From a virus, in the IMG/VR virus record IMGVR_UViG_3300025030_000046, positions 75,240-139,239 of that record: a stretch of 64,000 bases of DNA. One strand, written 5' to 3'. Below, in pieces: positions 18,226 through 19,178 of this stretch (position 1 is its first letter; each line of letters opens with the position of its first letter). Both the position numbers and the translations under genes were made by a program. The notes under the pieces are model-generated. The model saw only the letters and a program-made list of their open reading frames with translations, did no database searches and was not told the origin of the DNA.

Positions 18226-18858
18226 ATGGAGATGAGTATTACTAGAGGTTTATCTGAACTGAAACTACTTAAAGACAGAATAGAGCGAAAAATACAATCA
18301 TCAAAGTATATCGTAGGCAATAAGAAAAGCAATAAGAAGATAGATGGGATTTATAGCAAGGAAGATTTGATTACTACAATAAAAGCTGACTATCAAAGTG
18401 TGCTAGATTTAATTAACAGAAGGAAAATAATTAAGTCCGAAATAGTTAAATCAAACGCTAATACTATAGTTAAAATTTCTGGAAAAGAAATGACTGTTGC
18501 TGAAGCTATTGAAAGAAAAGAATCAATTCAATTTGAAAAGACTCTACTTAACACTATGGAGCAACACTATAGATTGGCAATTGCAAAAGTTGCATCTGAA
18601 AATGAAAAAGTACAAATAAATTTAGACAATCTGCTTAATACCACATTTGGTAAAGAGAATAAAAATAAGACGGCAGATAATGAGATTAAAATGATTTCAG
18701 AACCTTATCTTGAGCAGAATGAGTGGGAAGTAATTAATCCACTGAAGTTGCAAGATGAAATAGAGAAATTAAAGACTGACATAGAAGACTTTTTGAACGA
18801 AGTGGACTTCATCCTATCGGAGTCAAACACGATTACTAAGATTCAGATACCTGAATAA
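18226..18858 (+). CDS. coiled-coil protein resembling the DIP1984/DUF6847 family
   Basis: Internal duplication MSITRGLSELK / MTVAEAIERK and SNANTIVKI / SNTITKIQI; AAGGAG RBS. Confidence 0.7.
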   Translation: MEMSITRGLSELKLLKDRIERKIQSSKYIVGNKKSNKKIDGIYSKEDLITTIKADYQSVLDLINRRKIIKSEIVKSNANTIVKISGKEMTVAEAIERKESIQFEKTLLNTMEQHYRLAIAKVASENEKVQINLDNLLNTTFGKENKNKTADNEIKMISEPYLEQNEWEVINPLKLQDEIEKLKTDIEDFLNEVDFILSESNTITKIQIPE

Positions 18859-18871
18859 ACAGTTTAATATT

Positions 18872-19178
18872 TTGTAGTTATCCGAAAACTATAGACTTAA
18901 ATCACCCAATTCTTCAGGGTATATTGAAGAAACAAGAAGAAAAATTAAGTTCTATATTCAAATGGTGAATATTGATTTTATTATCTAATACTTACGTATA
19001 CACGTAATAATGCGTAAAAGCTCAAAGATTAAATTTCAATATTTAAAGTTTAGAATTTAAAGCTCTTTTTGATTAAAGTTATAAATCATAAGTCTAAAAG
19101 TTCGATGAAATCCAAGATAAAAGGTTTAAGTGTTGATTTAATTGACTTATAGTAATCCTCTTGGCTGGATAGTTACAA
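18872..19178 (+). ncRNA. candidate structured ncRNA with heptamer repeat tract
   Basis: 13-bp end-closing stem 18872-18884/19166-19178, several inner helices and a crossing helix CCAAGA/TCTTGG. Confidence 0.65.

Follow-up and report, generated by a model that had tools for sequence, protein, structure and literature searches.

TRAP binds 11 (G/U)AG repeats and HutP binds UAG every 7 nucleotides (nt), the gene of Y RNA adjoins that of its protein partner, and in type III toxin-antitoxin systems the antitoxin RNA consists of tandem repeats of ~34-45 nt (about 36 nt) that lie upstream of the toxin gene; in Firmicute plasmids, heptad arrays serve ribbon-helix-helix regulators. As to large RNAs of phages, the available excerpts of PMC9241854 place ROOL and GOLLD beside tRNA arrays in phages and prophages and describe long non-coding RNAs (lncRNAs) next to tRNAs in phage K, and those of PMC12286853 describe ROOL, GOLLD and OLE as RNA-only homo-oligomers. 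Here we analyzed a 64,000-nt stretch of virus DNA (the window; positions 75,240 to 139,239 of IMG/VR record IMGVR_UViG_3300025030_000046, a virus record of 139 kb with low G+C content), in which a gene for a 210-amino-acid (aa) protein, predicted to be all-helical and to form a symmetric homodimer (phrog_1491; 18226-18858, + strand), is followed by a structured RNA element of ~309 nt with a phased array of heptamers (18871-19179, + strand). All positions refer to the window unless a locus or record is named.

The element is a conserved, pseudoknotted RNA that is read from the same strand as the upstream gene and is obligately linked to it. We regard it as near certain that this structured RNA is real and represents a new family, which is probably made together with the gene. 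On balance we also lean towards reading the RNA and the protein as the two parts of a phage ribonucleoprotein. The stop codon of the gene occupies 18856-58, and the closing stem of the RNA (P1) begins at 18871/72, i.e., 13 nt later, within a spacer of 373 nt that separates the gene from the next one; no + strand open reading frame (ORF) of at least 40 aa was found in 18859-19231. Every sequence string quoted in an earlier note on this DNA is present where that note had placed it. The minimum free energy of the element was not better than that of shuffled sequences (z-score of only -1.31), when the 373-nt spacer was shuffled with its dinucleotides preserved, 8 of 300 shuffles also contained a long-range helix of at least 14 base pairs (bp), and a DNA similarity search with this spacer against the phage collection ('distant' setting) gave no match. 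The evidence in the window alone is therefore weak, and the case rests on relatives.

Close homologues of the protein were found at six IMG/VR loci, and the spacer was 90% identical in four of them; at loci L007 and L008, the protein showed 56-59% aa identity and the spacer ~76% nt identity over its 3' half and first 35 nt. Compensatory changes in the outer stem and in the CCAAGA/TCTTGG helix were already present in the first alignment. Elements were collected by scanning 88 loci for an uninterrupted stem of at least 11 bp ending in G, with a 3' partner and then G[CT]TG. Such a stem was present at 58 loci, three of which (L055, L061 and L089) were discarded as they showed helices in the wrong context, and five more loci were accepted with one mismatch, which gave 54 non-redundant elements with lengths of 264-397 nt. 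Alignment A3 comprises 55 elements (i.e., the 54 minus the doubtful L088, plus two added by eye).

In A3, P1 (18871-18884 with 19166-19179) was paired in 97.1% of cells, with double-sided changes in 13 of its 14 pairs. The PK helix (19112-19117 with 19159-19164) was paired in 88.2%, and its middle two pairs take all four Watson-Crick types (e.g., AU 22, UA 21, CG 6 and GC 4 in column 19114/19162), and P2 (18888-18894 with 19147-19153) was paired in 71.4% in a single register, with its pair 18890/19152 paired in 93%. These helices correspond to the outer stem (18872-84 with 19166-78), the ACTATAG (18888)/TTATAGT (19147) helix and the crossing CCAAGA (19112)/TCTTGG (19159) helix that had been read from the single sequence, and each of them covaries among the 55 elements. 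A further helix read in the same way (18895-903 with 19123-31) was paired in 53-60% as compared to a shuffle mean of 52% and was rejected; the covarying partner of 18897-18903 is 19135-19141. This helix, P3, was paired in 72.8% with double changes in 7 of 7 pairs (e.g., CG 18, AU 16 and UA 4) and is visible by eye in T5, Deep Blue, AM4 and phiCDIF1296T. Pair 19130/19147 of hairpin P5 was paired in 92% and occurs as GU, GC, CG, AU and UA. As P2 crosses PK and P3 crosses P5, the fold contains at least two pseudoknots. Overall, the pseudoknotted RNA proposed in the earlier note was borne out on the + strand, with one of its four long-range helices assigned to the wrong partner, and the covariation downstream of homologues that the note had named as a check is there in the 55 elements.

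Over the whole structure, 85.3% of cells were paired as compared to 59.2 +/- 0.7% in shuffles (0 of 500 reached the observed value), and sliding the partners by 1-3 columns reduced pairing to 32-45%. When all column pairs were scanned without prior assignment, pairs of P1 and PK ranked first and pairs of P2, P3 and P5 were also recovered. Swapping partners between sequences lowered the score from 13.9 to 9.9 +/- 2.7 for P2 and from 15.2 to 12.2 +/- 2.5 for P3. G-U or U-G pairs make up 145 of the 770 cells of P1, as compared to 22 unpaired cells, and the inner pair G18884-U19166 is GU in 55 of 55 elements; only the + strand RNA can therefore form this stem. In an independent test on bacterial sequences, 30 of 42 distinct 3' strands gave 12-14 of the 14 P1 pairs beside GAAA-type junctions.

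The phased run of heptamers that the earlier note had pointed out is not particular to the window. Block 1 (19017-19065) consists of seven A-A-A-G-N-U-Y units in exact 7-nt phase, in all of which the first A is present in 0.91-1.00 and the U at position 6 in 0.87-0.98 of sequences, with gaps of no more than 0.02. The array thus comprises exactly seven units followed by about four looser ones; the latter form block 2, which together with a conserved UCGAUAAAAU lead-in spans 19075-19111 and has AA at 19075, 19083, 19090 and 19097 (A in 0.96-1.00 at these positions). No covarying pairs above noise were found inside the array in the scan of all column pairs, so the heptads fit a single-stranded tract; pairing of the heptads with each other, which we had also considered, was rejected as covariation within the array lies at noise level. 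The constant count of seven is compatible with a 'ruler', as had been suggested, and is no proof of one.

The linkage between gene and RNA was assessed in both directions. An RNA-only search of viral contigs with a pattern of 19 positions taken from the 3' part returned 28 stretches, 12 of which carried the second 3' motif at the correct distance; in 12 of these 12, the variable bases of CCNAG and CUNGG complemented each other (A/U, G/C, C/G or U/A). Six of the 12 were new loci, and all six had a homologue of the protein (33-50% identity) that ended 230-400 nt upstream on the same strand. In the other direction, covariance model R1, which represents the 3' domain (the last 111 nt) and was built from seed alignment A4, from which L097 and L118 were left out because of long insertions, found the RNA after 78 of 80 homologues in bacterial genomes, none of which had been used in building it, and at 81 of 87 phage and viral loci, 44 of which were seeds. 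All matches lay on the strand of the gene and just downstream, with 10-60 nt between stop codon and RNA. The RNA was thus present at 159 of 167 gene loci. With filters off, the top match lay at the expected place in seven of the eight missed loci (E 0.001-0.59), and at the eighth (L083) the match at the expected place ranked third (E 0.2). No match at E < 0.01 was obtained in 16 unrelated control loci, and the match in the window (99.7 bits, E 2.5e-18) was the sole significant one, both within the window and across the whole 139-kb record. Clustering of flanking ORFs recovered the protein at all 160 loci, as compared to no more than 17 for the next real neighbour. Two deviations from the usual layout were seen. 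One bacterial metagenome-assembled genome carries two tandem R1 matches on the same strand (L199:2309-2420 and 2679-2778), which may represent a duplicated element, and the closest relatives of the window have an insertion of ~45 nt with a G+C-rich stem-loop between stop codon and P1 (L003:3634-3680 and L004:3634-3680), which the window lacks.

Carriers of the module are widespread. The protein was detected in 745 phage records (tblastn), including T5-like phages of Salmonella and Escherichia, Pseudomonas Otagovirus, Vibrio phages, Bastille-like Bacillus phages, Lactococcus phage AM4, phiCDIF1296T and Clostridium phage D-1873, and a profile search placed 3323 representative clusters in its family (E <= 1e-3). 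In six annotated genomes, a gap of 364-636 nt that lacks annotation comes after the homologue, in many cases behind a tRNA array, and the same architecture could be seen by eye in these gaps. The T5-type element occurs in 440 records at >= 80% identity and in 430 at >= 90%. Among 40 T5-type records that were listed, the annotation at the element was 'none' in 29 and 'hypothetical protein' in six, five records were unannotated, and an RNA annotation was absent in all 40. In T5 st0 (AY692264), the element lies at 34935-35291 on the minus strand, and its start is overlapped by annotated ORF T5p083 (L206:636-1433), which runs on the strand opposite the conserved protein gene and is probably a mis-called gene. 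One 349-kb IMG/VR contig holds two diverged copies of the module (L003 and L005) ~157 kb apart, whose proteins are 94% and 92% identical to that of the window; two related phages may have been joined in this contig through chimeric or concatenated assembly.

The window protein matched PHROG 1491 (E 2.1e-63), with its residues 2-208 aligned to positions 4-209 of the 211-position profile. The name given to this family, 'tail fiber protein', is annotation only, and we take it as such because the gene sits among early and tRNA genes and the structural model is a helical bundle. No match was found for the protein in Pfam, NCBIfam or the PADLOC families, and PADLOC-DB 2.0 (E <= 0.01) yielded no family for the protein or for its two downstream neighbours. 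The AF2 model (predicted local distance difference test, pLDDT, 82) combines a long bundle of helices with short strands, and its best Foldseek match was 3kdq (E 0.015, probability 1.00), a Corynebacterium diphtheriae protein of unknown function that we take to be DIP1984; the window protein is ~60 residues longer. Superposition on 3kdq gave a Z of 10.1 (root-mean-square deviation 7.1; 151 of 153 residues; 17% identity), which is above the next match (Z 7.5) and falls below the value of ~13 under which Z can reflect a merely common arrangement of helical bundles. A sequence search of the PDB with the window protein returned weak KaiA-like noise only, and 3kdq was absent from it. The hidden Markov model (HMM) of DUF6847 (PF20935) gave no match at the gathering score for the window protein and matched two of 32 relatives (best E 0.014); the nearest named Atlas cluster carries DUF6847 (score 0.87), and when we looked for a bridge to DUF6847 through protein representatives, the best 150 matches were all full-length relatives of ~205-215 aa. 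The proposed resemblance to DIP1984/DUF6847 may extend to the fold, for which 3kdq was the best match, and did not hold for DUF6847 at the level of its HMM, and an internal duplication of the protein, also proposed in the earlier note, found little support in an alignment of the two halves (hhalign, 15 columns, probability 10%, E 0.003).

The window protein probably forms a homodimer, as judged from structure prediction. The homodimer model scored 0.68 as compared to 0.00 for the best control, runs agreed in >= 95% of contacts and the partner pLDDT was >= 88; among solved homomers, 20 of 30 attained the mark used here, and among single chains one of 23 did. Eight basic residues are conserved, i.e., R7, K13, R18, R65, R66, K70, R97 and K98.

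We also examined the surroundings of the element for signals of transcription. No promoter signal above chance was present between the stop codon and P1, and in a promoter and terminator scan of the window the counts were at chance level. Terminator-like sites within 110 nt after the element were found at 42 of the 78 bacterial loci and at 15 of the 69 viral ones as compared to none of 157 control stretches, and tRNAs on the same strand lay within 1.5 kb at 32 of 60 viral loci, some of them starting 8-20 nt after the element. We infer that the gene and the RNA are co-transcribed. Sequencing runs that matched the window numbered four, all of them DNA from one groundwater-metagenome study that could represent the source sample, with no RNA run among them. 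Two of the nearby tRNA regions had features of their own. One viral contig with the module encodes a tRNA with anticodon UUA (L086:268-340; 'tRNA-Stop' in ARAGORN), which may be a suppressor tRNA, and in another viral contig the tRNA array that precedes the module includes a skipping-rope RNA (L097:255-333; Rfam RF02924, 71.4 bits).

We read the locus as a two-part phage module, in which a gene for a helical, probably dimeric protein is joined by an RNA of ~300 nt that would derive from the 3' end of a transcript shared with the gene. P1, with its 14 bp, clamps the ends of the RNA, P2 and P3 interlock with the 3' pseudoknot domain (PK and P5), and the RNA would act as a frame that holds out an unpaired tract of seven heptads and about four looser ones. 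Protein dimers may then bind the folded RNA, most likely along the phased heptads, and the resulting ribonucleoprotein, of fixed size, would be of use to the phage in the course of infection, for example through capture or mimicry of a host factor that handles RNA or through a role linked to the tRNA arrays inside which the element is often found. Several observations weigh against this reading or soften its support. The protein is mildly acidic (isoelectric point 5.77; 34 K+R and 36 D+E), and no recognised RNA-binding domain was found in it with Pfam or NCBIfam. The pairing figure for P1 is partly circular because the A3 elements were located through P1, the MAFFT alignment is imperfect at P2 and P5 (22-27 of 44 paired in the P5 hairpin), and a Lysinibacillus-type subgroup of the bacterial set forms only 10-11 of the 14 P1 pairs in the register that the model imposes, where the non-cognate mean is 10.3 of 14. 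In addition, a tRNA was nearby in only five of 43 prophage loci of bacterial genomes, and in the window itself neither a terminator nor a tRNA follows the element. A more specific form of the proposal is that of a very widespread and so far unrecognised class of ribonucleoproteins in which 3kdq-like dimers sit in register on a ruler of 7 + ~4 units, giving particles of defined size that would act on a universal RNA process of the host (e.g., tRNA or translation) or in counter-defence in T5-like, Felix-O1- or Otagovirus-like, Bastille-like and clostridial phages; we put this forward tentatively, as a possibility that we would not yet expect to hold in full.

The most substantial competitor to a ribonucleoprotein is an RNA that acts by itself, without protein binding, as a sponge or decoy for a host factor, as an RNA-only particle of the ROOL/GOLLD/OLE kind or as a ribozyme, with the protein as a functional or regulatory companion. 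The ornate fold with its multiple pseudoknots would suit such an RNA, as would an acidic protein devoid of an RNA-binding domain and the tRNA-like module that occurs inside the RNA of two members; its tRNA-array neighbourhood is that reported for ROOL and GOLLD in the excerpts of PMC9241854, and RNA-only homo-oligomers have precedents in ROOL, GOLLD and OLE (PMC12286853, in excerpt). We nevertheless consider this unlikely. The RNA was never found here without the gene (the gene was present at six of the six new loci of the RNA-only search), 159 of the 167 gene loci have the RNA, and the strict adjacency, common strand and 10-60 nt spacing would be left without a reason; moreover, as the number of units is conserved, the array would be unusual for a mere sponge.

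That the element starts 13 nt past the stop codon with no promoter in between, and that a terminator or tRNA often comes next after it, would be expected of a cis-acting 3' untranslated region, which could stabilise the message against 3' exonucleases, provide a processing signal or form an autoregulatory site for the encoded protein. This seems improbable to us, since ~300 nt with several covarying pseudoknots and a 49-nt conserved array would appear to exceed the needs of known 3' stabilisers, and since the RNA of L007 and L008 is conserved beyond the protein (76% nt as compared to 56-59% aa identity).

Even less probable is the toxin-antitoxin or defence pair that the earlier note had raised, in which a toxic protein would be neutralised by the repeat RNA, leading to abortive infection or superinfection exclusion. 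A protein gene beside a repeat-bearing RNA recalls such pairs, and the unit in bacterial genomes looks like a self-contained moron that ends in a terminator (42 of 78 loci). On the other hand, neither PADLOC nor any Pfam toxin family matched the protein, the repeats are of 7 nt and follow the gene as compared to the repeats of ~36 nt before the gene in type III systems, and the module resides in T5-like, Otagovirus and Bastille-like phages, which we take to be strictly lytic; overall, the suggestion found no support.

Finally, an element that acts as DNA, with the heptads as iterons, operator or centromere of a DNA-binding protein and the inverted repeat as a DNA feature, can be given hardly any weight, since the direct 7-bp repeats in a plasmid-like Clostridium phage context and the small YonK-like ORF that comes next in the window are outweighed by G-U pairs that the helices need (145 cells in P1 alone) and that, on the opposite strand or in a cruciform, turn into C-A mismatches, by covarying helices that span 250-300 nt and cross each other, by an orientation that is always that of the gene, and by the absence of the YonK-like ORF as a conserved neighbour.

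The remaining parts of the element can be described from 5' to 3'. The P1 5' strand is followed by a conserved AAA junction and the 5' strand of P2 (together 18885-18894; consensus CGAAAAC), and then by the 5' strand of P3 (18897-18903), which pairs with the loop of the 3' hairpin in the second pseudoknot. A probable small pseudoknot or hairpin, as read from the sequence, spans 18905-18931, with CCC (18905-07) opposite GGG (18917-19) and TTCTTCA (18910-16) opposite TGAAGAA (18925-31); only the pair 18905/18917 emerged from it in the column-pair scan (78% paired). The region up to the heptads (18932-19016), with local hairpins at 18954-72 and 18992-19017 in the window, varies in length and sequence among members. 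Inside this region, two members carry additional modules, i.e., an ARAGORN 'tRNA-???' with an odd anticodon loop (L117:2213-2287) and a partial match to YrlA (L118:2200-2263; 43.9 bits as compared to a gathering score of 69), and extra modules may dock in this region. Beyond the heptads, the 5' strand of PK (CCAAGA, 19112-17), an A-rich bulge (UAAAA) and GG (19123-24; paired with CC in 31 of 44) occupy 19112-19124, the P5 hairpin occupies 19128-19148 with the 3' strand of P3 as its loop (19135-19141), and 19149-19165 holds the rest of the P2 3' strand (to 19153), the spacer AAUCC, the 3' strand of PK (UCUUGG, 19159-64) and a C. GGCUG is near-invariant in the 3' part of the A3 consensus, and the 3' strand of P1 (19166-19179) forms the 3' end of the element, where the R1 match (19068-19179) also ends.

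Among the genes around the module, none other than the protein gene was a conserved neighbour by the clustering of flanking ORFs described above. In the window, the 59-aa ORF directly 3' of the RNA (19232-19411) matched Pfam YonK (E 4.1e-06, just above the cut-off), and the YonK-like ORF was not a conserved neighbour. In the window (19523-20491), in phiCDIF1296T (L038:2752-3603) and in Clostridium phage D-1873 (L002:7645-8615), the module is followed at a short distance by a gene for a calcineurin-like metallophosphoesterase, which was not conserved across the whole family. A 349-aa ORF ~1.4 kb upstream (15781-16830) has a C-terminal region that weakly resembles phage sigma factors (PHROG, E 1e-4).

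If the ribonucleoprotein reading is right, a conserved RNA of ~300 nt and its partner protein have been overlooked in hundreds of sequenced phages. The classic model phage T5 carries the module, and since both T5 and E. coli are standard in the laboratory, tests of expression, binding, structure and phenotype are possible together; the fixed heptad array is an unusual feature that can be mutated directly. The RNA would join the few large, ornate RNAs of bacteria and phages whose function is unknown, here with a dedicated protein, and its study could help to explain the presence of tRNA arrays in large phages and the way in which these phages deal with the RNA machinery of the host.

Comparison with named families was based on Rfam, ARAGORN and the literature. 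A scan of positions 17000-21000 of the window against Rfam 15 (E <= 10), which includes ROOL, GOLLD, YrlA, tmRNA, RNase P and 6S, gave no match inside 18859-19231, and ARAGORN found no tRNA or transfer-messenger RNA in the window. In 19 diverse relatives (E <= 0.01; L085 was left out of this comparison), Rfam returned only tRNAs, the one skipping-rope RNA, which lies outside the element, and the partial YrlA match in L118; the earlier note, which had not recognised the RNA as a named family and had itself set an Rfam scan as a check, agrees with this result. A full-text literature search, in which subscription journals were not covered, found no description of the RNA, of phrog_1491 or of DUF6847.

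Like ROOL and GOLLD, as these are portrayed in the excerpts cited above, the element is a large, ornate and pseudoknotted RNA of unknown function that is borne by phages and prophages, often beside tRNA genes. Unlike them, it has no Rfam match, is far shorter (264-397 nt), always has a specific protein gene alongside and contains the heptad array; ROOL and GOLLD appear in those excerpts as RNA-only assemblies, in contrast to this gene-paired element. The lncRNAs of phage K were tried as members of the same family and rejected, as R1 with filters off gave only off-target matches (E >= 0.04), and phage K gp233 was likewise rejected as a relative of the protein (hhalign probability 0.3%).

The type III toxin-antitoxin systems (ToxIN) share with the module a protein gene beside a tandem-repeat non-coding RNA and an association with phages, and differ from it in that its repeats are of 7 nt, its RNA is downstream of the gene, and no ToxN-type family or PADLOC match was found; a toxin with a new fold could go without such a match. 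YrlA and its partner Ro60 (Rsr) offer another parallel, as the 5' and 3' ends of the RNA are paired around a modular interior and a tRNA-like module is present inside two members of the family. The window RNA, in contrast, has no match to YrlA, and the match in L118 is below gathering and covers the inserted module only; since the partner protein has no Pfam family, it also has no Ro/TROVE match.

The heptad array itself can be compared with the targets of TRAP and HutP, with which it shares a fixed number of short, purine-rich motifs that are regularly spaced in unpaired RNA, here with a period of 7 nt and 7 + ~4 units. The candidate binder of the array is a predicted helical, 3kdq-like dimer rather than a beta-rich ring, and the array, instead of lying in a leader, is framed by a large tertiary fold.

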